DNA of 64,000 nucleotides from Bacillota bacterium. Lineage in GTDB: Bacteria; Bacillota_I; Bacilli_A; RF39; UBA660. Within the stretch, counting starts at the first letter, position 1. Each line of letters begins with the position of its first letter. The notes beneath the pieces were generated by a model. The model did not search any database and was not told where the DNA came from. It saw nothing but the letters and a program-made list of their open reading frames with translations. Below are positions 3,899 through 31,944 of this stretch, in pieces. The position numbers were made by a program, and so were the translations under genes. The stretch lies in the NCBI GenBank assembly GCA_015059425.1, contig SVAM01000009.1, positions 3,543 through 67,542 on the forward strand. The letters run 5' to 3'.

Positions 3899-3927
3899 TT
3901 TTGATATAATAAAAATAGGTGGTAAAC

Positions 3928-12371: not shown

Positions 12372-12382
12372 AAGGAGGAAAA

Positions 12383-14007: not shown

Positions 14008-15993
14008 ATGGAATTAAGTGATATAAAAGGAGTAGGACCCAAACTATTAAAAAGTTTAAATAACTTAAATATAAATACAATAGATGATTTATTATCATAT
14101 TATCCATATAGATATGAAATATTTGAACCATTAAATTTAACAGACGATTATAATGGTGAGCGAATTGCTATTAACGCAACAATTGAATCTTTACCAACAG
14201 TAGCATTCATCAAAAAGAACTTTAATAGATTACAATTTAGAGCTATTCATAACAATAAGATAATGCAAGTAGTAATATTTAATAGAGCATTTATGAAGCA
14301 ACATCTAACTATTAATAAAACTATAACTTTAGTAGGTAAATATGATAGTAAAAAAAATACATTTACATGTGATGATATAAAGTTAACTCCTATAACTAAA
14401 AAAGAAATAATTCCTATATATCACATTAATAAAAATATAAAGAATAATGAACTAAGAAAAATATATGAAAGTTTATTTTCTAACAAACTTGAAGTAAGTA
14501 AATATATACCAGATGAATATTTAGAAAAGTATAAGTTTTTAGATAAATTAGAAGCTTTAAAAAAGATACATATGCCAACTAATTATAATGATATAAAAAG
14601 TGCTAGTCTTTATTTAAAGTATGAAGAGTTATTCTTATTTTTATTTAAAATAGCATATATGAAAAAAGGGAATGATAATATATATAAAACACCAAAAGAG
14701 TTTAATGATAATGATATAAACGAATTTATTAGTACACTACCATTTACTTTAACAGATAGTCAAAGTGATGCCTTAAATTTAATATTAGAAGATTTAAAAA
14801 GTAATAAAAAAATGAATAGATTAGTTTTAGGAGATGTTGGTAGTGGTAAAACAATAGTAAGTTTTATTTCTATGTATGCATCATTCTTATCAGGCTACCA
14901 AAGTGTTTTAATGGCCCCTACAGAGGTTTTAGCGCGTCAACACTATGAAAGTGCTTTAAATTACTTTAAAGGCTTTAAAATGAATATTGGACTACTTGTA
15001 GGTAGTATGACTAAAAAAGAAAAAGACATAGTAAAAGAAAAACTTAAAAATAAAGAAATAGATATACTTATAGGAACACATGCGATTATTGAAGAAAGTG
15101 TAGTATTTAATAAATTAGGATTAGTTATAACAGATGAACAACATAGATTTGGTGTTAAACAAAGAGAAATATTAAAAAGTAAAGGTGAGATTCCAGATGC
15201 ATTATATATGAGTGCTACACCTATACCTAGAAGTTATGCTTTAACTTTATATGGTGATTTAGATGTATCTTTTATTACGCATAAACCAGGTGGTAGAAAA
15301 GAAATAGCAACCAAGATAAAAAAATATACAGCGTTAAAAGATGTTTTAACTCATGTATTAGAAGAAATAAAAAATAATCATCAAGTATATGTAGTAGCAA
15401 GTCTAATAGATGATAACGAAGAATTAGATTTAAAAAGTGTTGAAACATTAAAAGAAAAGTTTAATATAGCATTTAATAATAAAATACCTATTGAAATATT
15501 ACACGGTAAATTAAAACAAAAAGAAAAAGATGAAGTAATGACTAGATTTAAAAACAATGAGACTAAAATACTTATATCAACAACGGTAATAGAAGTGGGA
15601 GTAGATGTTAAGAATGCTACTATAATGGTTATATTTGATGCAGATAGATTTGGTTTAGCAACACTTCATCAGTTGCGTGGTAGAGTAGGAAGAAATTCAC
15701 TTGAAAGTTATTGTTATTTAATATGTGATGAAGAAAAAGAACGTTTAAAAGTATTAGAAGAAAGTAACGATGGTTTTTATATTTCTGAAAAAGATTTAGA
15801 ATTAAGAGGCGAAGGAGATCTATTTGGTATAAGACAAAGTGGGGTTAAAACATTTAAAATAGCAAACTTAAAAACAGATCTAAAAATCATGATGCAAGCT
15901 AAAAAAGATACAGAAGAATATATAAATCAAGAAAATTATAAAAATAACAAATATTACACAAAAATAATAAATGAATTAGATAGTTTAAATTAA
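14008..15993 (+). CDS. recG: ATP-dependent DNA helicase RecG
   Basis: 661 aa. Wedge domain, Walker A GDVGSGKT, DEQH box and helicase C motifs (QLRGRVGR). Confidence 0.93.
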   Translation: MELSDIKGVGPKLLKSLNNLNINTIDDLLSYYPYRYEIFEPLNLTDDYNGERIAINATIESLPTVAFIKKNFNRLQFRAIHNNKIMQVVIFNRAFMKQHLTINKTITLVGKYDSKKNTFTCDDIKLTPITKKEIIPIYHINKNIKNNELRKIYESLFSNKLEVSKYIPDEYLEKYKFLDKLEALKKIHMPTNYNDIKSASLYLKYEELFLFLFKIAYMKKGNDNIYKTPKEFNDNDINEFISTLPFTLTDSQSDALNLILEDLKSNKKMNRLVLGDVGSGKTIVSFISMYASFLSGYQSVLMAPTEVLARQHYESALNYFKGFKMNIGLLVGSMTKKEKDIVKEKLKNKEIDILIGTHAIIEESVVFNKLGLVITDEQHRFGVKQREILKSKGEIPDALYMSATPIPRSYALTLYGDLDVSFITHKPGGRKEIATKIKKYTALKDVLTHVLEEIKNNHQVYVVASLIDDNEELDLKSVETLKEKFNIAFNNKIPIEILHGKLKQKEKDEVMTRFKNNETKILISTTVIEVGVDVKNATIMVIFDADRFGLATLHQLRGRVGRNSLESYCYLICDEEKERLKVLEESNDGFYISEKDLELRGEGDLFGIRQSGVKTFKIANLKTDLKIMMQAKKDTEEYINQENYKNNKYYTKIINELDSLN

Positions 15994-16018: not shown

Positions 16019-16047
16019 TTGACAAACATCTAAAAACATAATATGAT
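16019..16047 (+). promoter_or_regulatory. sigma-A-like promoter followed by a 20-bp palindrome (16054-16073)
   Basis: TTGACA - 17 nt - TATGAT, followed by the palindrome gacatgataaacatcatgtc. Confidence 0.45.
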
Positions 16048-16068
16048 TATTATGACATGATAAACATC

Positions 16069-16158
16069 ATGTCCGAATCACTTTTACGACTTTATGTGAA
16101 AGTGAGTCAACCAAAACCCCCTGAAGAGAGCCCTAGTGGCTCTCATTTTTTTGTGTAA
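16069..16158 (+). CDS. small ORF (29 aa) ending in the repeat-X hairpin; doubtful
   Basis: MSESLLRLYVKVSQPKPPEESPSGSHFFV. The C-terminal PPEES is encoded by the 15-mer ccccctgaagagagc that recurs at 29091. Confidence 0.2.
   Translation: MSESLLRLYVKVSQPKPPEESPSGSHFFV
16126..16152 (+). terminator. intrinsic terminator (repeat X, copy A)
   Basis: gagagcc-ctagtg-gctctc followed by atttttttg. Confidence 0.6.
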
Positions 16159-16484
16159 AGCCAGTATTTATAAGGGGTTGTGAAAGAATTATTGTTTAAA
16201 TTTAAAAGTATCAGGAACCATTTAGGAACCATTCGTATATAAAATAGCCAAAAAGTGGTTTTTTTCAATGCTTTTAATTCCTTTAACTATAATAGCTTAA
16301 TATGTTTAAAAGAACACATTGAAGAGAACAATAAAACCATAAAAATTTTGAGTTAATAAAATCTTAATATAAAGACAAAAAACTAAAAATTTGATATAAT
16401 TTAATTAGTAAAAAGGAAGCGCTAGTACAGGCTTATTTTATAGTTTTTGTATTGGTGTTTTTTTGTGCAAAGGAAGTGATAAAT

Positions 16485-17546
16485 GTGAAAAAAGTAAAGT
16501 TAAAATATGAGTTTTTAGTTACTGGTATATATCCATTTGATGGGGATTATCAAAAAGGTGAATATGTTTTAAAAAAGAATACTATTGATGAAAAGAAATT
16601 TGAAACACATATTAAAGGTGATATTTTATATATAAACCCAATTATTGGATATTGTAGTTATCCATTTAATGGACAAAATGTATATTTGACATTTGAAAAA
16701 GAAGTGGTTACAGAAATTGATATCTCTGATTATAATGAAACAGAAAAAATCAGTGAATTCATAAATAAAATTGACTTGTTAAAAGAGAGTAAAAATTTAG
16801 AGCAAATGTTAGTCTTAGAAATAAATAATAGTATTATTTTTCCAATAAAAATGTTAAAAGTTTATGATTTGGATAATAATTATTTAACAATGAATATCAA
16901 TTTTTCTAAACTAAATGTTCCATCTTTAATTAATTTTGAACAAACTTATAGTATGGAAAAAATAGAACGTCAGAATAATCGAATAACATTTGGATTTAAT
17001 TATGACTTATTAACAGAATTAAAAGAAAAAAATAATTTGTTTGCTAGAGCTTTATCATTATATTATTCTTCTTTCATAGCTAATGATTATAATATCGGAT
17101 TCATATTACTTATTACCGCTTTGGAAACGTTGTTTAATCGAGCTACGTATTCAAAAGTAGAAAAATGTAAAAGTTGTTCACAATTAATTTACGAAATTGC
17201 ATCTTCAGTTTCAAATAATGTTAGTTTAATATTGATGGATGAGTCAGAAACGATTAAGAAAGTTATTAAAGAAAAATATAAAAAAAGAAGTAAATATCTA
17301 CATGGTGAGAAAGTGGAAATCACGTCAAAAGAAGACCAAGAGTTACAAGAGTATGTTAGAAAAGTTTTGTTAATGTACTGGTATATATTCATCAATATAA
17401 AAACAAACGAACATAAAAGCATAATTGCTGAGTTTCAAAAACAAGATTATAAAACTAAATTAACTTATATAAGCTTTTTAAAAGTTTTAGAACTTAAAAC
17501 ATTTGATGAAAAAAAAGATGATATATTACAAGCTTTTATAAAATAA
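16485..17546 (+). CDS. hypothetical protein with HEPN-like Rx4HG motif (Abi-like candidate)
   Basis: GTG start 8 nt after aaggaag. Helical C-terminal half containing KKRSKYLHGEKV (R-x4-H-G). First gene after repeat Z_A. Confidence 0.4.
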   Translation: MKKVKLKYEFLVTGIYPFDGDYQKGEYVLKKNTIDEKKFETHIKGDILYINPIIGYCSYPFNGQNVYLTFEKEVVTEIDISDYNETEKISEFINKIDLLKESKNLEQMLVLEINNSIIFPIKMLKVYDLDNNYLTMNINFSKLNVPSLINFEQTYSMEKIERQNNRITFGFNYDLLTELKEKNNLFARALSLYYSSFIANDYNIGFILLITALETLFNRATYSKVEKCKSCSQLIYEIASSVSNNVSLILMDESETIKKVIKEKYKKRSKYLHGEKVEITSKEDQELQEYVRKVLLMYWYIFINIKTNEHKSIIAEFQKQDYKTKLTYISFLKVLELKTFDEKKDDILQAFIK

Positions 17547-17575
17547 TTACAAAAGAGTAAGGAAGAATAAAAATT

Positions 17576-17950
17576 ATGGAAGTAATATTAGAAAAAATAT
17601 ATAATGATTTATTTGACATAAAAAAAGATAAACATATAGAAAAATTATTAGAACGAGATATTATAAAAATAATATATTTGTTATCTAAATATAAAGACAA
17701 AAAATAGACTTAAAAAAAATTATTGAACATTATAATAAAGAAAGAATTGAAAAATTACTTGGTTTTTCTAATACAACTATTCAAGATAGTTTTATTTGTG
17801 AAAAAGAGACCATGCATTTTACTTATCCAATACAAGAGACATTAAATAGAACAGAAGTGCTTTTCAAAATTACTGGAGAAAAAATGTGGAAAGATATATT
17901 TGGTTTTGATTACGAAATATTATATAGTTAAATTATTGTTATCGTACGCA
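17576..17950 (+). pseudogene. degraded gene fragments (multiple frames)
   Basis: Short ORFs in shifting frames (MEVILEKIYNDLFDIKKDKH...), consistent with a decayed gene. Confidence 0.3.
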
Positions 17951-17955
17951 GGCTA

Positions 17956-18255
17956 ATGTATTATAATGCGTATAAAAGCAATGTAGATGAAGAATTTTGT
18001 AGTAATTATGAAAACGTTTGGGAAAAGTCTTTGAATTGCTTTTTTACAAAAGAAGAATTTTATTCTTTTTTTAGAAATCCGGATGAACAATTAGATAATA
18101 TTTTAAAATTAATTTCAATTGATTTTTATGAACAAAACGAAATTAAATTAGCAATAGATCAAGCAGTTTATAACAATAAATTATTTTTAGCTTATGCTAT
18201 AGGTATTTTACAAAATAGAAATGAATGGGGAACAGAAGAATATGAGTATGTATAA
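17956..18255 (+). CDS. phage-related small protein / fragment
   Basis: 99 aa. C-terminal ...LAYAIGILQNRNEWG resembles DnaD/replisome-organiser-type helices. Uncertain. Confidence 0.3.
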   Translation: MYYNAYKSNVDEEFCSNYENVWEKSLNCFFTKEEFYSFFRNPDEQLDNILKLISIDFYEQNEIKLAIDQAVYNNKLFLAYAIGILQNRNEWGTEEYEYV

Positions 18256-18295
18256 AAACTTGTTCTATTTGTAATAGGATTCATGATATAAATAT

Positions 18296-18617
18296 TAATT
18301 GTAAAAGACCATATAGGTATAAAAAAAGATGTAGCTCTGATAGATTTAGAAGCACGTATGAAGGGAAACAAAAAAGAGAAGAGATTAAGAAAAGAGATAG
18401 ATACTTGTGTTTAGCTTGTTTAAATAATATTAACAATACAAATCATATGTAAAACTATAAAAACTTACAAGTACATCATATAATTTCTATAGAAGAAGAT
18501 TATGATAAAAGACTTAATAGTACCAATTTAATAACTTTGTGTCCGTGTCATCATAAGATGGCTGAACAAAAAGAAATTAGTTTAGAAGTACTATTAAAAT
18601 TAGTACCAAAAGAATAA
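18296..18617 (+). pseudogene. HNH endonuclease pseudogene (phage-type), interrupted by in-frame stops
   Basis: Translation gives ...RYLCLACLNNINNTNHM*NYKNLQVHHIISIEEDYDKRLNSTNLITLCPCHHKMAEQKEI... The HNH Cys/His pattern is broken by stop codons. Confidence 0.6.
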
Positions 18618-18813
18618 CCCCCCCGGAGGGTAGAAGTGTGAAAATAAAATCTTTTTCTCAACCCACAGCCTACCTACATTCACACAATTATAAATTTTCC
18701 GTGAGTTTTTTGGAAAATGGTATACCAATTGGATACTTAGATAAGAATAGTATAGATTAGTAAAGTATAGTATAGAATATATATATTTCATGTTGATGAA
18801 AAAAAGAATAAGT

Positions 18814-19143
18814 TTAACACTCATACTCAATTCTTTTAATTTCTAAAGGATTTTCATTAGTAATAAGTAATGCATATTTAACACGTAATAACTTATAGAA
18901 TTCTGCTTTTACCTTTTCAGAATCTTCTCCGAAATAATTAATTACATCTTTAGCAGAATTATAATGTTGTAGAAAAGAACCTTTATACATAGAATGCGTA
19001 TAATAGGAATTAGCTATATAATAGGCAATAACTTCAGGTATTATATAATTTTCTAAATATTCGTTATAATTATCTGCAAAAGGTTTAAGTAGTTTTTCAA
19101 ATTCCTCGTTACTAATATCGCCATTAATATTTTCTCTAATCAT
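18814..19143 (-). CDS. hypothetical protein
   Basis: ORF with ggaggtg RBS; no recognisable motifs. Divergent from the 19379 operon. Confidence 0.45.
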   Translation of the reverse strand: MIRENINGDISNEEFEKLLKPFADNYNEYLENYIIPEVIAYYIANSYYTHSMYKGSFLQHYNSAKDVINYFGEDSEKVKAEFYKLLRVKYALLITNENPLEIKRIEYEC

Positions 19144-19326
19144 ATACACCTCCAGTTGATTGTATTAATCACTTAATTATTCTATTATTGCAAGATTTAA
19201 TTTGGAAATTAAAAAAATTTATAATAAAAGTGATATAAAACTATGAAATATATAATAAAAATTTATTTTTTAAACAGCAATTTATACAAAATGAAGTACT
19301 ACATTTTAAAAATATAGTACAAATAT

Positions 19327-19355
19327 TTGACAAATATGTTGAAAAGATGTAATAT
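19327..19355 (+). promoter_or_regulatory. near-consensus sigma-A promoter of the 4-gene operon
   Basis: TTGACA (19327-19332) - 17 nt - TAATAT (19350-19355). RBS aaagaggg precedes the ATG at 19379. Confidence 0.6.
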
Positions 19356-19378
19356 AGTCGTAGAAAGAGGGCGTTATT

Positions 19379-19597
19379 ATGAATGAAAAAGAAGAAAGGT
19401 TTATAAGGATTGCTGAAAAAAGGACAAATAAAATATTGGAACAGATAAGATTGTTAAGTAATTGTTCAAATAAAAATAATTATTCTTATGATGATCAACA
19501 AGTTGATAAAATTTTTAAAGCTATTGAGAAAGAGTTAGATTTGGCTAAAAAGAAATATATAATGAATAAAGATAAAAATAAATTTAGTTTGAGGTAA
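19379..19597 (+). CDS. small hypothetical protein (72 aa), gene 1 of candidate system
   Basis: Helical, charged. Its stop lies 4 nt before the next start. Confidence 0.5.
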   Translation: MNEKEERFIRIAEKRTNKILEQIRLLSNCSNKNNYSYDDQQVDKIFKAIEKELDLAKKKYIMNKDKNKFSLR

Positions 19598-19601
19598 TGA
19601 T

Positions 19602-20234
19602 ATGAGTGAAATTGATAAATTAAGAAAAATAAAAGAAATAGATTATGACAGATATGTTGATATAAGTAGTTTAGAAAAAATGGCTGCTTATGCTATCAAA
19701 TATTTAGAAGACAATCAAGTGAACACAACTTGGACGAATGTAGTTATAGCTACATATAGTTTGTTTCCAAGAAGATTTGCAATTAGTGAAGATTTTTTAG
19801 ATTTTCCAAATGCTGAAAGAATTAGTAGAACTTTAATGCATCTGGTTCCACCAAAAGGGAGAAACTATGCGATAGGTAGTAGCAAAATTGATTATGCTTT
19901 AACACCACTTGGAAGGGAAGTTGCTAATGAAGTTGAAATTATTATTAATAGAGAGGCTACAATAAAAAACAGAAAACAAGAAGTTATTTCTTCAATTAAA
20001 ACTACACCAATGACAACTTACACTGATGTTAAGAATTCATCAGAATTTAAACAATATTGTGGTAATAATGAATACTCTGTAGATATGATATGGACTTTAT
20101 ACAAAGTAATACCATTTACACAACAAGATAAAATATTAAAAAAATTAGTTAGTGCTTTAAGATTTTCACAGGAATGTGGAGATGTTAAATGTGAAGAATT
20201 TATTAGTAAAATGATAAATTCAATTCAAAAGTAG
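19602..20234 (+). CDS. hypothetical protein (210 aa), gene 2 of candidate system
   Basis: RBS gaggt; no recognisable motifs. Confidence 0.55.
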   Translation: MSEIDKLRKIKEIDYDRYVDISSLEKMAAYAIKYLEDNQVNTTWTNVVIATYSLFPRRFAISEDFLDFPNAERISRTLMHLVPPKGRNYAIGSSKIDYALTPLGREVANEVEIIINREATIKNRKQEVISSIKTTPMTTYTDVKNSSEFKQYCGNNEYSVDMIWTLYKVIPFTQQDKILKKLVSALRFSQECGDVKCEEFISKMINSIQK

Positions 20235-20247
20235 GGAAGTGATTTAT

Positions 20248-22407
20248 ATGACAGATGTACAATCTTTTATTATTGAAGATTCAGCCAGAAAAAAACTCAT
20301 GGATCAAAAAAATATTTTTGGTCAAAATTTTGTAGAAATGCTTGCTGAAATTATTACAAATGCAGATGATAGCTATTCTAGAATAGAAGATAATACTGGA
20401 GATTATTCTCCTAAAAAAATTGATATCTATTTTGACAGAAGAAAAGACGAATTTACTGTAGTTGATTTTGCTGAAGGTATAGGTGAAAATGAATTAATAA
20501 AAATTTTCAGAAAATATGCAGATGATACTTCTAATACGAATGCAACAAATAAGGTGCGTGGCATGTTTGGTAGAGGTGCCACAGACGTTATGATAGAATC
20601 ATCATTAGTTGGTAAAGAAAATTTTTTGATATCGTTTAGGGATGATGAATCCACAAGACTTGTGTTTAAGTTTGACGAAAACAATAATAAAACATTTACC
20701 AGAGACACATTGACTGAAGAAGAAATAAGATTTTTTAGAAATGAATATAACATTACCGAAAATGGAACGATTGTAAGATTTGGTACAGGAAGAAAATATC
20801 CAAAAGATGTTATTGGTGCAATTGAAGATTATTATATGCTAAGATTTATTTTTGATAATGAAAACAGAAAAATAATATTTCATGATTTAAATGAAGAAAC
20901 AGAAAAACAATTACAAAATGATATGTCTTATTTTGATTATTGTGATGTATTGTGTGAGGAATCATTTGATATTAAATATAAAAATTATAAGTTAAAAGCT
21001 AATTTAAAAATAGTAAATAATCCGAACAAAATATCAAATCATTATATTTTGATATATGATGAAAAAAAAGCTGTTTATGATGATTCTAATTTTAACAGAG
21101 CCACAGAAGCAGGAATAGATAAGATTGAAGGTAGACTTGAGATAATTAATTTAACAACATTTGCTAAACAAATGATGAATGAATTTGGAGAAACAATAAT
21201 AACTCCAACTCGTGATGGATTTGAAACGAAAAATGATTTCTATAAAGACTTGAAAAATAAAGTAGACAAATATATTATTAATGCCTGTGCTATGGTATCA
21301 CAATCAACAGAAAAATCTCAATCAGGTTTAAGAGATAGAAAAGAATGGCGCAATTTCTTTAAAGATATTAATAAATATTTTAAAGATGAATTAGATACAA
21401 TTATTGATGGTGGTGAGGGCGATACAATAAAAGAACCTCCAGAAGAAGGTATTAAATTTGCTAGAAACAGTATTCCTGTTAAAATTGGTAAACATTACTT
21501 AATTAAATTATTGATTAATCCTAATTTAATTACTCTAGGAAGTTTAATTCAAATCCAACATGAAGGTGAATATATAACTCTAGCTCAAGATAAAATTATA
21601 TTTACTAATAATGGAGGAGAAGAAGTCCCTTCGGTATTAGTTGATATTCTCGGCTTAGAAAATACACCGGAACAACAATTTATTACTGCACATTGTGGAA
21701 TTTACGAAGCTAATTTATATTATGATGTTAGAGATGAAGAAGTTCACTTGCCAGCATATGGTTTTGATTTTTTTCCAAATGAATTAAGAAAAAAACCAGA
21801 GGTTACTAGAACAGCTACAATGTATGTTGATACTAACAAATTTGAAATAGGATCTATTATTGAAATTGAAAACAATAATAGTGAAATTGAATTAGAATAT
21901 GAGAACATCGTTATAAGCACGGAACAATTAGTAAATGATAATATAGCTAAAATAAGTCTTAATATTTCTGGTGGTATATTAGGTAAAACCTATTATATTA
22001 GTGCTATGTTAAATGCTAGAAAAATTGAATTTCCAATTATAGTACAGGAGAAAGATGATACAACAAATAATAAAACAGGTATTATTAATGATATACTTCC
22101 AAAAGAATCCCCGGTTAACTATGTACAAAGTTACTACGATAATGATAGAAATATAATCATAGTATCAAATAACGTTGCTAATAAACAACAAATCTCAACT
22201 TGGTTAGAAAAGAAAGAATATGCTACTATTGCAGAAAAATTTGCATTCTATAGTATTTTATCAGAAGAGCTTGCTAGAATAATGATAAGAGAAAAAAGTA
22301 GAAAAGATAAAATTGCAATATCATCAGATCCAGATGAGTTTTTCAGAGTAATAAGTGAAGAAAAAGATAAAATGTATAAGATGCTTTTAAAATCTTTTGA
22401 GGAATAG
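20248..22407 (+). CDS. GHKL (HSP90/sacsin/MORC-type) ATPase-domain protein, 719 aa, gene 3 of candidate system
   Basis: Bergerat-fold boxes: N-box EIITNADDSY, G1 DFAEGIG, G2 GMFGRGATD. The C-terminal ~500 aa are uncharacterised. Confidence 0.6.
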   Translation: MTDVQSFIIEDSARKKLMDQKNIFGQNFVEMLAEIITNADDSYSRIEDNTGDYSPKKIDIYFDRRKDEFTVVDFAEGIGENELIKIFRKYADDTSNTNATNKVRGMFGRGATDVMIESSLVGKENFLISFRDDESTRLVFKFDENNNKTFTRDTLTEEEIRFFRNEYNITENGTIVRFGTGRKYPKDVIGAIEDYYMLRFIFDNENRKIIFHDLNEETEKQLQNDMSYFDYCDVLCEESFDIKYKNYKLKANLKIVNNPNKISNHYILIYDEKKAVYDDSNFNRATEAGIDKIEGRLEIINLTTFAKQMMNEFGETIITPTRDGFETKNDFYKDLKNKVDKYIINACAMVSQSTEKSQSGLRDRKEWRNFFKDINKYFKDELDTIIDGGEGDTIKEPPEEGIKFARNSIPVKIGKHYLIKLLINPNLITLGSLIQIQHEGEYITLAQDKIIFTNNGGEEVPSVLVDILGLENTPEQQFITAHCGIYEANLYYDVRDEEVHLPAYGFDFFPNELRKKPEVTRTATMYVDTNKFEIGSIIEIENNNSEIELEYENIVISTEQLVNDNIAKISLNISGGILGKTYYISAMLNARKIEFPIIVQEKDDTTNNKTGIINDILPKESPVNYVQSYYDNDRNIIIVSNNVANKQQISTWLEKKEYATIAEKFAFYSILSEELARIMIREKSRKDKIAISSDPDEFFRVISEEKDKMYKMLLKSFEE

Positions 22408-22411
22408 TAAA

Positions 22412-24175
22412 ATGGTTTTCTATTATTATAATCTAGATACTCTTGTTGAAAGTTATTTTGATAATGTAAGAATTATTAATATTTTACATAATAATGGGAT
22501 TAAAAATTTATATGATTTGTTTGTGTGTGATATTAATGAAGTATTAAACTCAAATGCATGCGGAAATAAAAGTAAGAGTATTATAGAAGAAACTTTTTAT
22601 TATTTACAAGCATTAGCAAGAAATAAATTTGATACTACAAAGATATATGAAAAATATGATTATTTATTAAATGATATGATTATTGTTTCAAGAAATTCAG
22701 ATAACGGAGAATTAAAAACAGAAGTATTATTTAAAAGATTCCTAGAAATATATGAGTTAGAAAAATTATCCCCCAAAGATTTTGTTAATTCAAATATGAT
22801 AATTCAATTTCTTGAGGTTTATGAGGGTAGTGCACCGTTAGATTATATTAGTCAAGAAACATCAAAATTTAAAAATTATAAAGAAGCTTACGCTTATTTA
22901 AATGATATTATTAATAATAATAAAGCCGATAAAGCAAATATTTTTAAAAGATATAATGGTATTTTCGTTGAAAGAGAAACATTAGAAGAAATAGGTAAAG
23001 ATTTTGGTGTAACAAGAGAAAGAATAAGACAAATTAATAAACGTACTACAGAAAAAATATATAACGCACTAGATACTATATATAGAAAAATAAAAAATAC
23101 ATTTGATAAAGCTTATTACATCCCTTTATCAAATCCAATGTTAAGAATATATTGTGAATATTTATATGAAAGAGGTTTTTTAAAACTAGAAAGAATTTTC
23201 GATGAAAAGGTTTATGTTAGAAACGAAGAATTAATAAATATAGTTAATAAAATAGAAATAGCTCTTGAAGAAAATAATGTATATAGTGATGAAATGGATA
23301 GAAATGTTTTAAAACTCTTTGAAAAAAAATATTTAATTAAGGATGGTAAAATCCTAAAGAATAATACGTTAATTAATTATGTTCCAATGGTTCTAGATGA
23401 AATAGGAAGAGCAGTAAATTTAAATAGTGAAAATGATGTTAATCTGATTTATGACATTTTAGAGCGAGAATATAGTGTAACCACAGAATATAAGGATTCA
23501 AGAAATATTGAGAGAGTATTAACAGATACAAGTATATTAATTGATTCAAGGACTTATATTTCCGAAAAATATCAAAAGAAAGCAGATATGACTGAAGTTT
23601 TTGAATACATAGAAAAAAGTGAAGTTACAAATGCTCAAATTATTTATTCAACTTTCATAAAATTATGGAATAATATTGATATATATAGTCATGTGGGTGT
23701 ATATGGATATTTAAAATATTTTTATCCTAATAAATATAATTATGCAGGAAGAAGTTTCCTTATAAATGTAATTGGCAAAAGTACAACTTGGGGGGAGATT
23801 GTAATTGATATGATTAAAGAAAAAAAGGCCCCAGTAACGTTTAACTCGGTTAATGAATTATATCCGGCATTAAATAATATGATATGGATAAATCTTGAAG
23901 CAAACTTTACTGATTTAATATTTTGGGGAGATAATTCATATTATTGCAATAGTATGTTAAAACTTAGTCCTGAAGATATGAGTTTTATTACTATTTATAT
24001 TTATAACAATGGAACAGTTACAGATAAAGATTTATATACTTACATATTAAATAATAAGGAGTATATAATTCACGATAATTATTTACATAGCGAAAAACAA
24101 TTATTAAAATTTATCAAAGTTAAGTTTGATGGGGTTATTAATTATAATTCTGACTTGAGAACTTATTATATATAA
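22412..24175 (+). CDS. protein with RNAP alpha-CTD-like HhH and sigma-70 region-4-like HTH, gene 4 of candidate system
   Basis: N-terminal VRIINILHNNGIKNLYDLFVCDINEVL (alpha-CTD-like). Mid-protein LEEIGKDFGVTRERIRQINKRTTEKIYNAL (sigma70 r4 HTH). Start overlaps the upstream stop. Confidence 0.55.
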   Translation: MVFYYYNLDTLVESYFDNVRIINILHNNGIKNLYDLFVCDINEVLNSNACGNKSKSIIEETFYYLQALARNKFDTTKIYEKYDYLLNDMIIVSRNSDNGELKTEVLFKRFLEIYELEKLSPKDFVNSNMIIQFLEVYEGSAPLDYISQETSKFKNYKEAYAYLNDIINNNKADKANIFKRYNGIFVERETLEEIGKDFGVTRERIRQINKRTTEKIYNALDTIYRKIKNTFDKAYYIPLSNPMLRIYCEYLYERGFLKLERIFDEKVYVRNEELINIVNKIEIALEENNVYSDEMDRNVLKLFEKKYLIKDGKILKNNTLINYVPMVLDEIGRAVNLNSENDVNLIYDILEREYSVTTEYKDSRNIERVLTDTSILIDSRTYISEKYQKKADMTEVFEYIEKSEVTNAQIIYSTFIKLWNNIDIYSHVGVYGYLKYFYPNKYNYAGRSFLINVIGKSTTWGEIVIDMIKEKKAPVTFNSVNELYPALNNMIWINLEANFTDLIFWGDNSYYCNSMLKLSPEDMSFITIYIYNNGTVTDKDLYTYILNNKEYIIHDNYLHSEKQLLKFIKVKFDGVINYNSDLRTYYI

Positions 24176-24190
24176 AAAAGAAGATTTCTA

Positions 24191-25429
24191 TTAATCTTCT
24201 TTTTTTATTATATTTTCAATCTCTTCTCCAATTTTTTCAATAATACCTACAACTAATGCATTACCCATCATAAAATTTCTCTTTTTTTGAGTCATTCCTG
24301 TGTTTGTCCAATTATCAGGAAATCCGTTTATTCTTTCACATTCAATAGGTGTTAATAGTCTTGGCTTTTTTGTTCTTAAATCTTCAATAACATGAGTTGT
24401 TCGGCTAACGCCACCTTCGCTAGTAAGCATTGTTCTAGCTGGAGCATCTAGGTTGTCAGGGAAAGGCATTGCCCCTTCACTATAGTAATAAGGCTCGCCA
24501 TTAGGTTTAACTCTTGGTATTTTTTTGCTTCCTTTTAAAAATATAAATTTTTCGATTTGAACATCAGATAAGAAATATTTTTCTTCAACTTCATTTTCTT
24601 CTCTAATTTTTCTTAATGGATATACTAAATTATAATCAGCTCTTGTTTTTACTGTATATATACCGCCATCAGCCATAATACCTGCATTATAGAATTCGCA
24701 TTTAAACATGTTACTAACTTCTATTAGATCCTTATATTCTTTTATACTTGATTTAGTTATTGCTTCATAAGCATCTTTGATAGGGAATTGTTTTACAAAT
24801 AACCCTTTTTTAAAAATGACATCTCTATCATTTAAGTTTCTCATTTCTTTATAGTAATTGGTAGATTTGTGATATGCAAAAATATAGGTTCTTCTTCTTT
24901 TTTGTGGCAGACCATATTCACCAGCATTTATAACTCTCCATTGAACATCATAGCCGTTTTCATAGAAACTCCTTAATATCATTCCGAAATCTCTTCCCCT
25001 TTGTTTTGCGGGAGAAAGTAATAATCTATCTACGTTTTCTAACAAAACAAATGGAGGTTGCTTAATAGCTAGGATTTCTTCGATAGCCCACCAAAGGACC
25101 CCTTTTTTTCCTTCAATACCTTTGCTATTTGATAATGTTTGCGCTACTGAATAATCTTGGCATGGAAATCCACCAACTAATAAAGTGTGGTCTGGAATTT
25201 CTTTTTTATCAACTTCAAATATATCGACATTGCTAACATCTTTAAAACCAAATCTTGTTCCGTAACAAATATATGCATCTTGAGTTTTAGTAGCAGGTTC
25301 CCATTGATTTGCCCAAACAAATTTCCAATTTCCGTTTTCTTCAACTTTATTATCTATTAATGTAACCTTATTTAATCCGCATCTAAAACCACCAACACCA
25401 GCAAATAGTTCTACACATGTTTTTTTCAT
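24191..25429 (-). CDS. DNA (cytosine-5)-methyltransferase, M.Sau3AI-like
   Basis: 412 aa. Motif I FAGVGGF, motif IV GGFPCQDYS, ENV motif. Same length as M.Sau3AI and adjacent to the Sau3AI-like endonuclease. Confidence 0.85.
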   Translation of the reverse strand: MKKTCVELFAGVGGFRCGLNKVTLIDNKVEENGNWKFVWANQWEPATKTQDAYICYGTRFGFKDVSNVDIFEVDKKEIPDHTLLVGGFPCQDYSVAQTLSNSKGIEGKKGVLWWAIEEILAIKQPPFVLLENVDRLLLSPAKQRGRDFGMILRSFYENGYDVQWRVINAGEYGLPQKRRRTYIFAYHKSTNYYKEMRNLNDRDVIFKKGLFVKQFPIKDAYEAITKSSIKEYKDLIEVSNMFKCEFYNAGIMADGGIYTVKTRADYNLVYPLRKIREENEVEEKYFLSDVQIEKFIFLKGSKKIPRVKPNGEPYYYSEGAMPFPDNLDAPARTMLTSEGGVSRTTHVIEDLRTKKPRLLTPIECERINGFPDNWTNTGMTQKKRNFMMGNALVVGIIEKIGEEIENIIKKED

Positions 25430-25484
25430 TTATATACCTCCTATTTATTGTGAAAAATCGTTATATATATTATAATATAGTTAG

Positions 25485-25541
25485 TTGTAAAGATCAACCA
25501 TGCAATTAGTATTATAACTTAATTTTGTTAAAAGATCAACT
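25485..25541. promoter_or_regulatory. divergent R-M promoter region with two direct repeats containing GATC
   Basis: ttgtAAAGATCAACc (25485-25499) and ttgttAAAAGATCAACt (25526-25541). A third GATC lies at 25583, near the RBS. Confidence 0.4.
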
Positions 25542-25600
25542 TTTCTTAATAATATTTTACTATAAATTTGAAATTAAAACAAGATCGAAAGGAGAATTTT

Positions 25601-26989
25601 GTGAAAAAAGGTAGACATTATTTGGTAGATGAAATTGCTTTTATAGCTCAAACTGCAATTGGAAAATCCTTTAGAGAAATTAGGGATGCAGATATAGTAA
25701 CGCTTGAAGATGATAAAGTTACTAAAGGATCTTTGGGTGGAATAGTGGAGGAGGCATTATTCGGAATTGAAGCTAACGGTGATTCAGCACCAGATTTTAT
25801 TGATGCTGGTGTAGAATTAAAAGTAACTCCTTATAAAAAAAATAAAAATAACACTCTTTCTGCAAAAGAAAGATTAGTATTAAATATAATCGATTACATG
25901 ACTGAATATAAGAATGAATTTTTTTCGAGTCATTTCTGGTATAAAAATAATCTATTAGAAATAATATGGTATCTTCATGAAGATGGTAAAGACAAACTTG
26001 ATTTAAAAATTACTAATGAAATTTTAATGGATTTATCTGAAAGCGAAGACATTAAGCAAATAGAACAAGACTGGTATACGGTTATAACCAAAATAAAAGA
26101 AGGTAAGGCTCATGAAATATCAGAGGGAGATACAATGTATCTTGGGGCTTGTACTAAAGGCGAAAATTCCCTATCATATCGCAGACAACCATTTAGTAAT
26201 ATGATGGCAATGCAAAGAGCATTTTGCTTTAAACAAAGCTATATGACGCAGTTGGTTAGAAAATATATTGGAGATTATTCTAATGTTGAGAAAATATTAA
26301 CAAATACTGAGCAAACATTTGATGAGTTTGTAAATAATGTAGTTAATAAATATAAGGGTAAAACTCAAAGTGAATTAATGGAATTATTTAATATTGAATC
26401 ATCCGCTAAAAATATAAACTCTATTATTGTTAGTCGAATGTTTGGGGTTAAAGGTAGCTTAAATGAAACAGAAGAATTTTTAAAAGCTAACATTATCCCA
26501 AAGACTGTTAGGATAGAAGAAAATGGAAGAATCAAAGAGTCAATGTCTTTTCCAGCTTTTAAGTATATTGAGATAATAAATCAAGAATGGGAAACATCAG
26601 AATTAAGGGAAAGTTTAGAATCGACTAAATATTTATTTTTTGTTTTTAGAATGGATAATAATGAATATGTATTTAAAGGAATTAAATTGTGGAATATGCC
26701 GGAATTAGTAATAGATAATGAAGTTCAAATTATGTGGCAAAAAACCGTTGATATTATAAAGAGTGGTAATATAGTGAAATCTATCACTAATGGTATTAGG
26801 GAAACTAATTTTCCAGGAGTTGCGCAAAATAAAGTGTGTCATGTTAGACCTCACGCAAGAGATGCACAAGATACATATCCATTACCAGTTGTTGATAAAT
26901 TAACTGGATTAACAGATTATACTAAACATTGTTTCTGGTTTAATAGGGGTTATTTAGAAGAAATATTAGAAGAGTATATTAATGAATAA
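25601..26989 (+). CDS. type II restriction endonuclease, Sau3AI family (GATC)
   Basis: GTG start after aaaggaga. Strong similarity recalled from R.Sau3AI: AGVELKVTPYKKNKNNTLSAKERLVLNIIDYM; EGKAHEISEGDTMYLGACTKGENSLSYRRQPFSNMMAMQRAFCFKQSYMTQLVRKYI. Duplicated MutH-like architecture. Confidence 0.8.
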   Translation: MKKGRHYLVDEIAFIAQTAIGKSFREIRDADIVTLEDDKVTKGSLGGIVEEALFGIEANGDSAPDFIDAGVELKVTPYKKNKNNTLSAKERLVLNIIDYMTEYKNEFFSSHFWYKNNLLEIIWYLHEDGKDKLDLKITNEILMDLSESEDIKQIEQDWYTVITKIKEGKAHEISEGDTMYLGACTKGENSLSYRRQPFSNMMAMQRAFCFKQSYMTQLVRKYIGDYSNVEKILTNTEQTFDEFVNNVVNKYKGKTQSELMELFNIESSAKNINSIIVSRMFGVKGSLNETEEFLKANIIPKTVRIEENGRIKESMSFPAFKYIEIINQEWETSELRESLESTKYLFFVFRMDNNEYVFKGIKLWNMPELVIDNEVQIMWQKTVDIIKSGNIVKSITNGIRETNFPGVAQNKVCHVRPHARDAQDTYPLPVVDKLTGLTDYTKHCFWFNRGYLEEILEEYINE

Positions 26990-27102
26990 AATACATTAAT
27001 AAGCTGTAAAACTGGATAAAATTATGATATAATATAAATATGAGAATAGAGCATAATTTCATTTTTAATAATGGAATATGCTTTTTTTGATTGGAGGTAA
27101 CT

Positions 27103-28584
27103 ATGAATAAATTAACTAGAGTTAACGAATATTTAAATGTTTCTGAGAAAGATTTAGAAGAATTGGGTGTTTATAATGGATATGCTAATATAGATTCTGA
27201 ATTATATATTAATCCAAAATTATTAATAGATTGTGAAATAGATGAATTTAAAAATTCTTATAATAAAATTACCAATCATTTTGAAAAAATAATTGAACTT
27301 TTAAGAAAAAGTGAAAAAGCATCAAAAGATGATTTGATGTGGAATCTTGCATTAAAGTTATTTTGTTTTCCTGAACCTAATGGGGTTGCACTGGGTACAT
27401 CTGGATTATCAATAAATGGAAACGGTTTAAGCGGAGAAACAGCAGAGAGTGCATTATTAAAATTAAAAGAAATGATTGATAACGACATAGATGATCCACA
27501 AATTTTTGGGATGTTGGCGCTTATTCAAAAGAATATAGGCGTTGATCGTATAAGTGATATGATAAGCAATATAATATATGATGATTTATTACTTTATACC
27601 GAAAATGTTATACAAAAATTAAATATTACATCTTGTGTTGAAGTAGAATATAATAAAAAACAATATAAAATAAAAATTAGAGAAAATGGTTCAAATTTAA
27701 TACTTATTCCAAAGAAAATATTAAGTAATATTCCACCTTTTGTTGATTATCATTCTATCCAAGATATAATAGATGAAAATGTAAAAATAAAACAACAAAT
27801 TTACGAGATGTTTTATGAGATAAATAAGAAATTAAAAAAGAAAAAAGTTTCTCAAGTAAACATAAAAGATTTAGATAAAGACCAAGTTTATGAGATTATT
27901 AATAAATTTAATTTACATAGAATAATTTTAGATGCAAGTTCTAATATTAATGTAGAACCTTATGATTTTGAAACAGATGTTGAGGGCATTCATAAACCGA
28001 TAGAAAAGATAACAAATTTAATTGCAAAAAAGGAACAACAAGTTTTAGGTAATATTTTAAAAATGAGAAATGAAAATTTTTCTGAGTTAGTAGAAGATTT
28101 AATTAACAATTATAAGTTTATTATTGAAAATAAAGGATTAAATCAAGACTTATATCATAAAGTTCCTACAAAAACAGGTAAATATTATTATAGACCTAAA
28201 CATGAAGGTGTATCTCATCGCTTATTCATTGCTACATTAGAAAATACAAAACAAATTTTTAACTATGATTATACTTACGAACCTAAATCTTCAAACGGAG
28301 AAGTAGATTTTAGATTTTATCGTAATGGTGAAGTTATTGTAGTTGAATTTAAACTAAGTACTAACAAGTTAAAAGATGGATATGATAAACAATTAGTTGA
28401 ATATATGAAAAGAGAAAAGAGTGATAAAGGGTATTATGTGATAATTAAAGTAAAAGATGATAACGCAATTGATAATTTTCTAAAAAATACAAAAATCACA
28501 AATAATAGACCTATTGTAGTAGTAGATGGATTATTAAAATCTAGTCCATCACATTTGCACTCTGAAGAATCGGAGGAAATGTAA
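27103..28584 (+). CDS. hypothetical protein with C-terminal PD-(D/E)xK nuclease-like motif
   Basis: RBS ggaggt. C-terminal GEVDFRFYRNGEVIVVEFKL (D...ExK) followed by QLVEYMK. N-terminal 350 aa unassigned. Confidence 0.5.
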   Translation: MNKLTRVNEYLNVSEKDLEELGVYNGYANIDSELYINPKLLIDCEIDEFKNSYNKITNHFEKIIELLRKSEKASKDDLMWNLALKLFCFPEPNGVALGTSGLSINGNGLSGETAESALLKLKEMIDNDIDDPQIFGMLALIQKNIGVDRISDMISNIIYDDLLLYTENVIQKLNITSCVEVEYNKKQYKIKIRENGSNLILIPKKILSNIPPFVDYHSIQDIIDENVKIKQQIYEMFYEINKKLKKKKVSQVNIKDLDKDQVYEIINKFNLHRIILDASSNINVEPYDFETDVEGIHKPIEKITNLIAKKEQQVLGNILKMRNENFSELVEDLINNYKFIIENKGLNQDLYHKVPTKTGKYYYRPKHEGVSHRLFIATLENTKQIFNYDYTYEPKSSNGEVDFRFYRNGEVIVVEFKLSTNKLKDGYDKQLVEYMKREKSDKGYYVIIKVKDDNAIDNFLKNTKITNNRPIVVVDGLLKSSPSHLHSEESEEM

Positions 28585-28938
28585 ATGAAGAAATTTATGT
28601 TTGATTTAATAGCATCACCATTATCATTGTTTGAAAATCAACTTTACAATTATGTTGCCATGGCAATTATAGGATTTATAGCATTTAAAATAGCTTTTAG
28701 TACGGTTGGAGATTTAGGATTAAGAGGAGAGGCCGGTTCAATAGCCCATTGGATAATAAGATTTTTTGTTTTTGTATTTATATGGTTTATATGTTGTGTG
28801 GCAATTACCTTAATTACATTTATTATTAACAACTGGATTATTATTACGATTAGTGCTATATTGCTATTAGTAATATACACTTTAAAGATATATGCAAATA
28901 AGAATCCAGAAAGCATATTAAACAAAAAAATATTATAG
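28585..28938 (+). CDS. small 3-TM membrane protein, translationally coupled to the upstream nuclease-like gene
   Basis: Stop and start abut (gtaaATG). Three hydrophobic helices. Confidence 0.5.
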   Translation: MKKFMFDLIASPLSLFENQLYNYVAMAIIGFIAFKIAFSTVGDLGLRGEAGSIAHWIIRFFVFVFIWFICCVAITLITFIINNWIIITISAILLLVIYTLKIYANKNPESILNKKIL

Positions 28939-29090
28939 GAACCGTTTTGAATGTAGATTTTTATGTCAGGAACCACATAGGAACCGATATACTAATTTAT
29001 AGGGGTATTAGTCAACAAAAGTAGGATAAATTAGTGATGTTTAAAACGAAAATAACATTGCTTAACACACAGAACAATCGTTTGGCTGAG

Positions 29091-29124
29091 CCCCCTGAAG
29101 AGAGCAGAGAGTCTCTCATTTTTG
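29091..29124 (+). repeat. repeat X copy B (15-mer ccccctgaagagagc plus terminator-like hairpin)
   Basis: Exact 15-mer shared with 16117-16131, plus the shared ctctcattttt. Confidence 0.6.
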
Positions 29125-29353
29125 TTTATATTAAAGTTTTTAAAAACACTTAAGATATAAATTTAAAATAAGTTAATATTTTCTATGACAAACTTACTAA
29201 TAATTACATTTTTATCAGTAAATTATTAAAGGTACAAAAGTGCAAATAATGATTTCTAAAGTGCAAAAATTGCACTTTGAAATTTCTTTTTTTATGTATT
29301 AAACTGACAAATAGTAACTTTTTTGTTATAATGTTATTAATGGAGGTGCTAAG

Positions 29354-30202
29354 ATGTCTGAGAGAGAATTAGATTCAAGTATAAACAATTATATTGAAAC
29401 AGAAACACCTAAAAACTATGTAAAACAATTAGCATGGGATATGGCTATTGGACTTCAAGAAGTTGATAACTTAAAACCTTCTAAGTATTTAGAAAAATTG
29501 TTACAAGAAAACGTAACAGGTGAAAAAACAATTTATGAAGTTGAACATGAATTAAAGCAATATTATGTAGAAAAAGATAAAACAGATAAAACAATTCAAG
29601 ATGAATTTGAATGTGATTTAGTTTCTACTAGAATAGTTCAATTATTGAGTATTGATAATTTTGAACTATCAGTAGACTATATAAAATATATTCATGAATA
29701 TTTATTTAAAGATATTTATGAATTTGCAGGTGAATTTAGAAAAATAGATTTTTCTAAACATGAAAGAATATTAAATAATGATTCAGTTGCATACGGAGAT
29801 TGTAAATTATTAGAACAATCATTAGATTATGATATATCATTAGAAAAAACTAAAAATTATAGTGAAATGAACATAGTTGATGTAATTAATAATATAACTA
29901 ATTTTACTTCAAATATATGGCAAATACATCCGTTTAGAGAAGGCAATACTAGAACTACTGCATTATTTATAGAAAAGTATTTAATATCACTTGGATATGA
30001 TGTAGATAACACTATGTTCAAAGAAAAATCTGTATATTATAGAAATGCATTAGTAAGAAGTAATTATTTTAATAATTATTTAAATATAAAACAAGATAAT
30101 AGTTTCTTAATTAAATTTTATGAAAATTTATTATTAGGTAAAAATAATAATTTACATTCAAGAGATTTAATTATAGAAGAATTATTTAATAAAGAAAATT
30201 AA
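29354..30202 (+). CDS. Fic/DOC-family protein
   Basis: Fic motif HPFREGNTRTTAL. Confidence 0.8.
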   Translation: MSERELDSSINNYIETETPKNYVKQLAWDMAIGLQEVDNLKPSKYLEKLLQENVTGEKTIYEVEHELKQYYVEKDKTDKTIQDEFECDLVSTRIVQLLSIDNFELSVDYIKYIHEYLFKDIYEFAGEFRKIDFSKHERILNNDSVAYGDCKLLEQSLDYDISLEKTKNYSEMNIVDVINNITNFTSNIWQIHPFREGNTRTTALFIEKYLISLGYDVDNTMFKEKSVYYRNALVRSNYFNNYLNIKQDNSFLIKFYENLLLGKNNNLHSRDLIIEELFNKEN

Positions 30203-30381
30203 AAGAGGTGCCAGTACAGGCTTATTAATTTAATAAGTTTTTGTATTGGTGTTTTTATTAAAAATAACTAATTTAAAGGTAAAAAAAAGGATCAAGAAAA
30301 ATTAATTGTTTTATTAGAATTGTAAATGAATAATAAAAACATAAAACACTCTATCAAACAACAAAAAGAAAGGAAATTACT

Positions 30382-31460: not shown

Positions 31461-31554
31461 TTATGGGCCTGTAACATTATCGCATTAATTAAAAGATTTT
31501 AATATAATTTAAATTTAACTTTAAAATCTGTTATAATTAACTTAGGTGATAAAA

Positions 31555-31944
31555 ATGATAAAAGTAGTCGCAGCATTAATAGAAAAAGATGATAAAATTC
31601 TTATTGCCAAACGTTCTACTGGAGATGAATATGTATTTGGTAAATGGGAATTTCCTGGCGGCAAAGTAGAACCCAATGAAAGTGAATTAACTGCTATAGA
31701 AAGAGAAATATTAGAAGAGTTTGAACTAAAAGTTAAAGCTAAAGAATTTATAACAAATAATGTTTGTATTTATCCTACAAAAACAGTTGATTTAAGATTA
31801 TATAGATGTGATTATATAAATGGAGAATTTAAGTTACATGATCATTCAGAATATAAATGGGTTAAGAAAGAAGAAATAATGAATTATGATTTAGCACCTG
31901 CTGATATACCACTTGCAAATTATATTAGAACACAAAACAATTAA
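31555..31944 (+). CDS. NUDIX hydrolase (MutT-like)
   Basis: Nudix box GKWEFPGGKVEPNESELTAIEREILEEFEL. Confidence 0.8.
   Translation: MIKVVAALIEKDDKILIAKRSTGDEYVFGKWEFPGGKVEPNESELTAIEREILEEFELKVKAKEFITNNVCIYPTKTVDLRLYRCDYINGEFKLHDHSEYKWVKKEEIMNYDLAPADIPLANYIRTQNN

Follow-up and report, generated by a model that had tools for sequence, protein, structure and literature searches.

According to the Islander report (PMC4383910), an island that integrates into a tRNA or tmRNA gene regenerates the target gene that it splits, and the displaced fragment of that gene marks the far end of the island. Elements that retain their left and right attachment (att) sites, attL and attR, but lack genes for integration and transfer are known as cis-mobilizable elements (CIMEs), and further integration at an att site yields tandem arrays with chimeric junctions (PMC5704250). 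Here we describe an accessory island beside recG in a stretch of 64,000 nucleotides from a Bacillota bacterium (contig SVAM01000009.1; the whole stretch analysed is hereafter called the window). A preliminary description of this DNA had delimited the island by three families of short repeats, X, Y and Z, each present as a copy A near recG and a copy B at the far side, and had argued from their order that they are not duplicated att sites. We arrive at a different reading, for which we put the probability at about 75%: two decayed integrative elements lie here in tandem, both inserted into the 3' end of a gene beside recG that encodes a small RNA (sRNA) of about 100 nt.

The repeats themselves are real and far above chance. 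Their positions and exact copies were confirmed, and a word-7 BLAST comparison of the two intergenic regions returned only X, Y and Z as significant. The preliminary description was also borne out in regarding the interval as a strain-variable accessory or defence island without an integrase, variants of which (L003 and L005/L007) are described below, and in its account of the gene content (an HNH pseudogene, a Sau3AI-type restriction-modification pair, Fic, orphan genes and no integrase), which Pfam, PADLOC and tblastn reproduced. Likewise, X, Y and Z do recur as modules at islands of other genomes, and the site is a recombination hot spot.

The X repeat and the small RNA gene beside recG

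The recG gene (14008-15993, by Pfam) is followed on the plus strand by a promoter at 16019..16047 (TTGACA, a 17-nt spacer and TATGAT) that agrees with the consensus at 11 of 12 positions, and a TTGACA/TATAAT-like promoter stands at the equivalent place in the homologous loci of other species. Next comes a structured sRNA gene (16052..16152, plus strand), the putative integration target and host of attB, which is defined by its fold, by a covariance model (R1) and by synteny. Its layout is hairpin 1 (16054-16073), hairpin 2 (16075-16108), the invariant single-stranded segment CAACCAAAACCCCCUGAA, a terminator (16126-16144) and a U-run. X is the final 13-15 nt and the terminator of this RNA gene, which lies just 3' of recG. 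The exact 15-mer CCCCCTGAAGAGAGC is found at 16117 and 29091 (0.07 expected by chance), and the window has no further copy even if as many as three mismatches are allowed. At both places a hairpin and CTCTCATTTTT come next. X_A (16117..16152, plus strand) consists of the core CCCCCTGAAGAGA(GC) and a hairpin of 7 pairs that makes a good terminator and would have been supplied by an element; X_B occupies 29091..29124 on the same strand.

For a view across species, we searched a single representative genome of each species for CCCCCTGAAGAGA followed, after 6-20 nt, by TCTCATTTT. At least 120 stretches matched, and the invariance of X among them is partly built into the search pattern. All counts over X sites given below (123 sites, of which 61 belong to class 1 and 62 to class 2, as defined next) refer to the matches listed. 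Loci L009-L128 are X-bearing stretches from other species, while L003 and L005/L007 are strain variants of the window species. The hosts among the matches listed include many uncultured gut metagenome-assembled genomes (MAGs) labelled Bacilli, Tenericutes, Mycoplasma sp. CAG or Erysipelotrichaceae. RecG at the X loci of other species is at most 57% identical to that of the window, and the X motif is therefore conserved over a wide lineage.

The same arrangement of sRNA and X is found in dozens of these MAG species, and the X sites fall into two classes of about equal size. Class 1 resembles X_A, with a promoter, two hairpins that vary between species, a near-invariant CAACCAAAA and then X. At 43 of the 61 class-1 sites, the end of a recG homologue lies about 130-150 nt upstream. 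Class 2 resembles X_B in that the DNA upstream bears no relation to the sRNA.

Folding supports the RNA gene. The window sRNA (16052-16156) has a minimum free energy of -34.3 kcal/mol (z = -6.8), and a common fold of hairpin 1, hairpin 2, single strand and terminator was obtained for all 60 homologues. With the searched motif removed, the sRNA bodies still give a median z of -4.4, and the two hairpins are built from 39 and 47 distinct stem sequences. RNAalifold on a plain MAFFT alignment recovered only the terminator, the variable hairpins being misaligned, and a seed alignment of 5 sequences was misaligned as well; we instead used per-sequence folding and alignment to a covariance model. In that alignment of 56 hits, which is fitted to the model and leans towards structure, 19 of 19 pairs show compensatory changes, and 93.4% of cells are paired, compared with 65.1% in shuffles and 26-47% when the partners are slid. 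Model R1 has one full-length match in the window, at X_A (16052-16129, 51.6 bits, E = 7e-11). It has none at X_B, and the DNA ahead of X_B is not related to the sRNA.

The target is neither a tRNA nor a tmRNA. A search of the whole window with Rfam 15 at the gathering threshold gave a tRNA as its sole match. Between 15950 and 16500, with E up to 10, the best Rfam score was 18.9 bits against a gathering score of 50, so that no family accounts for the sRNA or for Z. X forms the 3' terminus of a conserved sRNA gene; it does not represent a terminator cassette that is itself mobile.

A second short motif, TAAGGGTT or AAAGGGTT, stands 10-25 nt past the U-run of X at 55 of the 120 sites listed, compared with 1 control stretch. 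It lies at about 16170-16180 in the window, is common to element families with different arm repeats (see below), and may be a core-proximal binding site.

Attachment-site architecture, integrases and strain variation

The DNA that follows X belongs to a few families that are common to distant species, each with its own hairpin sequence in which pairing is kept. These families are mobile elements, each with its own copy of the sRNA 3' end. A conspecific metagenome contig, L003, shares 99.9% identity with the window over a stretch that starts upstream of recG and reaches to CCCCCTGAAGAGA. Beyond this point it switches to another terminator hairpin, another flank and another repeat pair (TTAGGTGG twice, 11 bp apart, with TAGGTGG as the repeated arm sequence), and its P' arm recurs in other species. 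In the window, the 3' segment of the target stands at both island ends, as a full regenerated sRNA at X_A and as a fragment at X_B. The site beside recG is a docking point for islands of defence genes in many related uncultured gut bacteria.

The Y repeats have the position expected of arm-type integrase sites. The unit is an 8-mer, (C/T)AGGAACC, repeated with the AGGAACC cores starting 11 bp apart. Y_A, the putative P' arm (16212..16230, plus strand), reads CAGGAACC-ATT-TAGGAACC and lies about 60 nt past X_A. Y_B, the putative P arm (28936..28985, plus strand), reads CAGGAACC-ACA-TAGGAACC at 28967-28985, with an additional TAGGAACC at 28936-28943, and lies about 124 nt ahead of X_B. Together, Y_A and Y_B hold 5 of the 6 AGGAACC sites of the window. 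Other species, and the strain variant L003, show the same geometry with other sequences. Three loci with two X copies each have a mirrored order of X, repeat, repeat and X, with TAGGTACA in L065, TAGGTCAC in L088 and TAGGTAAT in L120. A repeat of at least 7 nt at a spacing of 10-12 bp is present about +35 to +65 past X at 82 of 123 sites, and a tandem repeat about -125 to -140 before X at 28 of 62 class-2 sites, compared with 2 of 61 class-1 sites.

Integrases are present at the X sites of other species. Tyrosine integrase genes, with Phage_integrase and Arm-DNA-bind_4 domains, are found on the opposite strand, 92-3700 nt past X, and read towards it; they stand beside X in L051, L053, L069, L104, L080, L015, L122, L123 and L111. 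Each type of arm repeat pairs with its own integrase N-terminus and the pairings recur across species, for example with TTTAGGTACAA in L015, L122 and L123 and with TAGGTACCA in L104 and L080, in a sample of 10 integrases and only 5-6 types. The repeats are thus found on both arms, inside the element, at a fixed distance from the core and, as far as this small sample goes, matched to the integrase. That an integrase would bind Y is a well-supported prediction from these sequence features.

The most widespread element family has the hairpin GCATTTAACCGTGC and the arm repeat TAGGTACA (L055, L056, L066, L077, L094, L012 and others). It often carries a gene for an AAA-ATPase of about 414 amino acids (aa) followed by one for a 212-aa protein, 0.6-2.7 kb past X, which look like a defence pair. 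Other elements at X carry Fic, methylases or an abortive-infection-like pair.

Our reading of the window is as follows. The element family would encode a tyrosine integrase with an N-terminal arm-binding domain, and its attP would repeat the final 13 nt of the sRNA (CCCCCTGAAGAGA), add a terminator and have element-specific 8-mer direct repeats, 11-12 bp apart, on either side. Integration is proposed to split the sRNA gene at the 13-mer, such that the copy brought by the element would regenerate the gene (X_A, attL) and the original sRNA 3' end would be displaced to the far side (X_B, attR). Y_A and Y_B would serve element 1 (16132-29090, with 12,974 bp between the cores) as its P' and P arm sites. 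X_B would double as the left junction of an older element 2, of which only Fic and Z_B would remain. Z is predicted not to be an att site; each element would contribute one Z at the head of its cargo slot. The array would then run from the sRNA with X_A through Y_A, a promoter, Z_A, cargo and Y_B to X_B, followed by Fic and Z_B. With Z_A belonging to element 1 and Z_B to element 2, the interleaved order of the repeats follows without any special mechanism. Both elements lack an integrase; as decayed integrative mobilizable elements, they would move only with an integrase supplied in trans. Excision of element 1 would leave the empty site ...GTCAACCAAAACCCCCTGAAGAGAGCAGAGAGTCTCTCATTTTTGTTTATATT, and the excised circle would carry the junction ...CGTTTGGCTGAGCCCCCTGAAGAGAGCCCTAGTGGCTCTCATTTTTTTGTGTAAAGCC. 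The position of the crossover and the order in which the elements arrived are what we infer from these features.

This bears directly on the order X-Y...Y-X, which the preliminary description had taken as an argument against an att duplication. In attL and attR of the lambda type the core is duplicated and the arm sites lie inside the element beside both cores, and a mirrored order is therefore what one would expect. Thus, the description was right about a variable defence island, a hot spot and recurring modules, and mistaken in rejecting att duplication.

Several observations weigh against a tandem array of integrated elements. The X_B hairpin is weak, with 5 pairs. The window has no integrase, as judged from the lack of a Phage_integrase domain by Pfam and from tblastn with integrases of the family, which gave nothing below E = 0.1, and it has no excisionase or relaxase. 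No other element with AGGAACC arm sites was found, and no integrase of that specificity is known; a metagenome scan with the Y pair CAGGAACCAYWTAGGAACC gave 27 matches, all due to chance, with no X nearby and the wrong GC content. A scan of metagenome contigs for an empty attB, using the species-specific 38-mer of sRNA and X, gave 0 matches, and no circular attP junction turned up. Element 2 lacks a defined right end, with no third X, and the border of a strain replacement falls at 24185 rather than at X_B. The limits given above on motif invariance, on the integrase sample and on the sRNA pair counts point in the same direction.

The replacement border is also an argument for an alternative in which homologous recombination alone, following DNA uptake, swaps blocks between shared flanks such as the sRNA 3' end and the Fic-Z module, and site-specific integration has no part in this island. 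In the strain variant L005/L007, the match to the window begins only at 24185 and continues rightwards. The replaced stretch starts at the X_A core and stops at 24185, where the methylase gene ends, and not at X_B. The border at 24185 means that the recent variation is not a simple excision or integration of element 1. It is block replacement, probably by homologous recombination or by integration followed by deletion. The composition of the island is likewise that of its host, and there is no integrase. GC content is flat at about 25% across the window, the island is not set apart by GC or skew, and its tetranucleotide distance from the rest is 0.120, with control segments at 0.075-0.117. The compositional check of 16-30 kb against the flanks that the preliminary description had proposed therefore yielded no signal. 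Homologous recombination alone, however, leaves unexplained the 15-nt copy of the sRNA end 13 kb away and the AGGAACC pair that lies on the element's side of the core at both ends, and it does not account for the identical geometry, together with integrases, in many species. We consider it unlikely as the sole explanation. Homologous replacement probably acted later, on top of the integrations.

Strain comparisons have not yielded an island-free relative. All 23 contigs with an identical RecG carry an island, L003 among them with its different element at the same core. Exact-protein look-ups with RecG, His_Phos and Fic showed the island in all contexts, with L003 and L005/L007 as partial variants.

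The alternative left segment of L005/L007 (positions 1-4275, sample ERZ27248370) holds other DNA in place of the window sequence left of 24185, namely a partial open reading frame (ORF) rich in repeats, ORFs of 82 aa and 967 aa, the longer one with a weak AAA/NTPase signal, and an Amidase_3 gene that is truncated. No X-, Y- or Z-like sites were found in this segment of L007.

The Z repeat, the proposed second element and the cargo genes

Z consists of a 14-mer, exact at 16424 and 30213, and a 21-mer, exact at 16442 and 30236 (0 expected by chance). Z_A (16413..16464, plus strand) is a leader hairpin with a U-run, identified by its fold, and precedes a ribosome-binding site (RBS), AAGGAAGTGA, and the start of a 353-aa ORF. 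Ahead of it, at 16372..16400 on the same strand, is a promoter (AAGACA, a 17-nt spacer and a TG-extended TATAAT) that matches the consensus at 10 of 12 positions plus the TG. Z_A folds with -19.3 kcal/mol on the plus strand (z = -4.6) and -3.1 on the minus strand, and Z_B with -18.5 kcal/mol on the plus strand (z about -4.6) and -8.0 on the minus strand. The hairpin is long and rich in G-U pairs and is followed by U5-U7, the sequence features of an intrinsic terminator or attenuator. Z was also found in seven loci of other species, where it comes after a Fic stop codon or a TG-extended -10 box (TGnTATAAT in L016, L059, L073 and L094). All seven lead into GTAAGGAAGTGA and the start codon of an ORF, and these ORFs are mostly unrelated to one another. 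Z thus stands at the head of a variable cargo slot as an RNA-level element, most likely a terminator or an attenuator.

An alternative is that Z is a recombination site, attC-like or a second att, for the exchange of cargo cassettes. Such a role would fit the position of Z, which in several species falls exactly where conserved DNA gives way to unrelated cargo ORFs, its imperfect hairpin, and the two window copies, which are direct repeats 13.8 kb apart. On the other hand, the stem relies on many G-U pairs and forms on the plus strand alone, Z is followed by a U-run and a conserved RBS, and a promoter or stop codon precedes it. Furthermore, each element has one Z, with no arrays and no dedicated recombinase nearby. 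We regard this alternative as quite improbable. A separate proposal, that Z is a second att site giving nested or tandem elements, is ruled out by the interleaved order of X and Z.

Element 2 is seen as a remnant at 29125..30256 on the plus strand, with a Fic promoter (29304-29332), the Fic gene (29354-30202) and the Z_B hairpin (30204-30256). The stretch from X_B to Z_B aligns with the left end of an element in L111, L127, L021 and L038, and the window Fic is 87-95% identical to the Fic found about 230 nt past X in L111, L127, L021, L044 and L038. In L111 the full element is preserved in the order X, Fic, Z, a 778-aa ORF, an integrase and a Mob_Pre relaxase. Given this integrase and relaxase, the L111 element is an integrative mobilizable element (IME). 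Compared with the related loci, element 2 of the window is missing a 23-nt stretch that holds TTTTAGGTACAC twice, so that its arm repeats are deleted. It also has no cargo ORF, integrase or relaxase, and nothing of the element is left past Z.

A NUDIX gene lies three genes past Z_B (31546-31944), and 66-67% identical homologues stand beside X in two distant species (L119, 3816-4199; L011, reverse strand, 7048-7443). Because this identity compares with at most 57% for RecG, the genes to the right of Z_B may also be element cargo.

With Z described, a broader alternative can be weighed in which X, Y and Z are not parts of an att system at all but independent short mobile intergenic modules, that is, terminator or operator cassettes resembling miniature inverted-repeat transposable elements (MITEs) or repetitive extragenic palindromic (REP) sequences, as the preliminary description had suggested. 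All three repeats do recur beside variable genes in other genomes, both X and Z look like terminators, and the window has no integrase. Against this, X is the end of one specific sRNA and is confined to that end or to element junctions, with 1-3 copies per locus in other genomes among the matches listed. Y keeps a fixed side of X and a fixed distance from it and differs in sequence from one integrase type to another. Neither the inverted terminal repeats nor the target-site duplications typical of MITEs were observed, and X and Z, each present twice in 64 kb, do not have the dispersion of MITE, REP or BOX elements. The repeats are therefore not independent cassettes, and we hold this alternative to be very improbable. 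Nor does the interval resemble a prophage or satellite: the only phage-like piece in the window is the HNH pseudogene, and the X pattern had 0 matches among the IMG/VR viral contigs.

Least credible of all is the idea that the two X copies are the 3' ends of two small protein genes with a common PPEES C-terminal peptide. In the window both copies do lie within short open frames, but these are an artefact: just 13 of 60 homologous loci keep the frame open over 10 or more codons from an ATG, with no single frame conserved, the hairpins differ in length by non-multiples of three and change on both stem sides together, and no RBS precedes the ATG.

The proposed element 1 carries a varied set of genes. 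The 353-aa ORF behind Z_A (16485..17546, plus strand) belongs to no Pfam or PADLOC family and contains an R-x4-H motif, RSKYLH, from which the protein may be HEPN-like. It is followed by debris (17546..19150, strand unassigned) that comprises short broken frames and an HNH endonuclease pseudogene at about 18250-18616 with one in-frame stop. Directly 3' of the pseudogene is a G+C-rich patch, CCCCCCCGGAGGGTAGAAG (18616-18640), in DNA of 25% GC. Next comes a four-gene operon (19379..24175, plus strand) that encodes proteins of 72 aa, 210 aa, 722 aa (HATPase_c_3 by Pfam) and 592 aa (with a Sigma70_r4-like helix-turn-helix). This operon (19379-24175) is replaced by different DNA in L005/L007. PADLOC gave no system-level match for it, only a weak MzaA-like stretch, and it is a possible undescribed defence system. 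Homologues of its 72-aa protein occur near X in L091, L116 and L013.

Beyond the operon is a type II restriction-modification pair (24191..26989) that consists of a 5-methylcytosine (m5C) methylase on the minus strand (24191-25429; Pfam DNA_methylase, 1.2e-61; PADLOC MTase_II, 7e-162) and a MutH/Sau3AI-type endonuclease on the plus strand (25568-26989; Pfam MutH, 7.1e-31; PADLOC REase_II, 9e-103). Two further cargo ORFs on the plus strand (27091..28938) encode proteins of 497 aa (DUF8370/DUF8371 on record) and 117 aa. The sole PADLOC match of the 497-aa protein is a weak Cas4-like nuclease stretch. The 117-aa protein is hydrophobic, and its gene adjoins the P arm of element 1.

Outside the island, the region upstream of recG (10617-13960) encodes two secreted-looking proteins, one with SH3_3 and type I dockerin domains and the other with a cadherin-like domain. 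A dockerin is unexpected in an organism of 25% GC whose relatives include gut Bacilli with reduced genomes. Towards the right end of the window, an AT-rich stretch contains a 36-nt tandem duplication, 81% identical (63083-63154).

Comparison with known systems

In our reading the repeats resolve into an ordinary mechanism, namely site-specific integration into an RNA gene, decay and tandem accretion. No general concept is altered, and the mechanism is classical; what is added is an sRNA family not on file as the target and a portable leader ahead of the cargo. For a defence island of uncultured gut bacteria with reduced genomes, a group in which mobile elements have hardly been described, the analysis supplies the exact junctions. 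It also provides three markers for the annotation of MAGs: the covarying sRNA absent from Rfam marks hot spots, X with its arm-repeat signature marks island limits, and the Z leader marks cargo slots. The slots flagged by Z contain diverse, partly unknown defence-like genes. More speculatively, and with considerable doubt, the sRNA might be an undescribed, lineage-wide regulatory RNA whose invariant, C-rich unpaired 3' segment serves as the attB core for defence-carrying elements in uncultured gut Bacilli and Mycoplasmatota, with Z acting as a portable attenuator that silences interchangeable, possibly toxic, defence genes until they are triggered.

The C-rich, trans-acting sRNAs of Firmicutes of the RsaE/RoxS type likewise have their own promoter, stem-loops, an unpaired CCCCCU stretch and an intrinsic terminator. 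The sRNA beside recG, in contrast, matches neither RF01820 nor any other Rfam model, and we take the resemblance as a lead only.

The closest parallel for the whole interval is provided by the islands that tyrosine integrases place at the 3' ends of tRNA and tmRNA genes, as catalogued by Islander and TIGER. As in those islands, an RNA gene is split, with a regenerated end (X_A) and a displaced end (X_B). Unlike them, the window has as its target an sRNA gene of about 100 nt beside recG that has no Rfam family, and its element copies have no integrase.

The model developed for streptococcal ICESt1 and its CIMEs describes decay to an att-bounded remnant followed by tandem accretion, which is the course that we propose here. 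Element 1 corresponds to a CIME, with both cores, both Y arm sites and no integrase or relaxase. Element 2 is more decayed than a CIME, its arm repeats being deleted and a right-hand att absent. An IME would have its own integrase and a relaxase or oriT, neither of which is present in the window, and it is L111 that has the make-up of an IME. The system differs from the streptococcal IMEs and CIMEs in its hosts, which are uncultured gut Bacilli and Mycoplasmatota, in its target gene and in its mostly defence-related cargo, and cis-mobilization of the window elements is only putative.

The predicted attP resembles that of lambda in having repeats about one helical turn apart on both arms, at a fixed distance from the core, and integrases with Arm-DNA-bind_4 domains. 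It differs in that one repeat pair per arm was recognized (with one extra P-arm site in the window) and in that the arm sites are predicted; no excisionase or host-factor sites were identified at the att region.

Finally, the variable slots of P4-like satellites and of SXT integrative and conjugative elements (ICEs) constitute hot spots for defence genes within mobile elements. The Z-headed slots are similar in that a conserved flank, either Fic and Z or a promoter and Z, is followed by unrelated defence-type genes that differ by host. They are distinct in belonging to another element family and other hosts, and in being headed by a conserved terminator-like hairpin and a common RBS.

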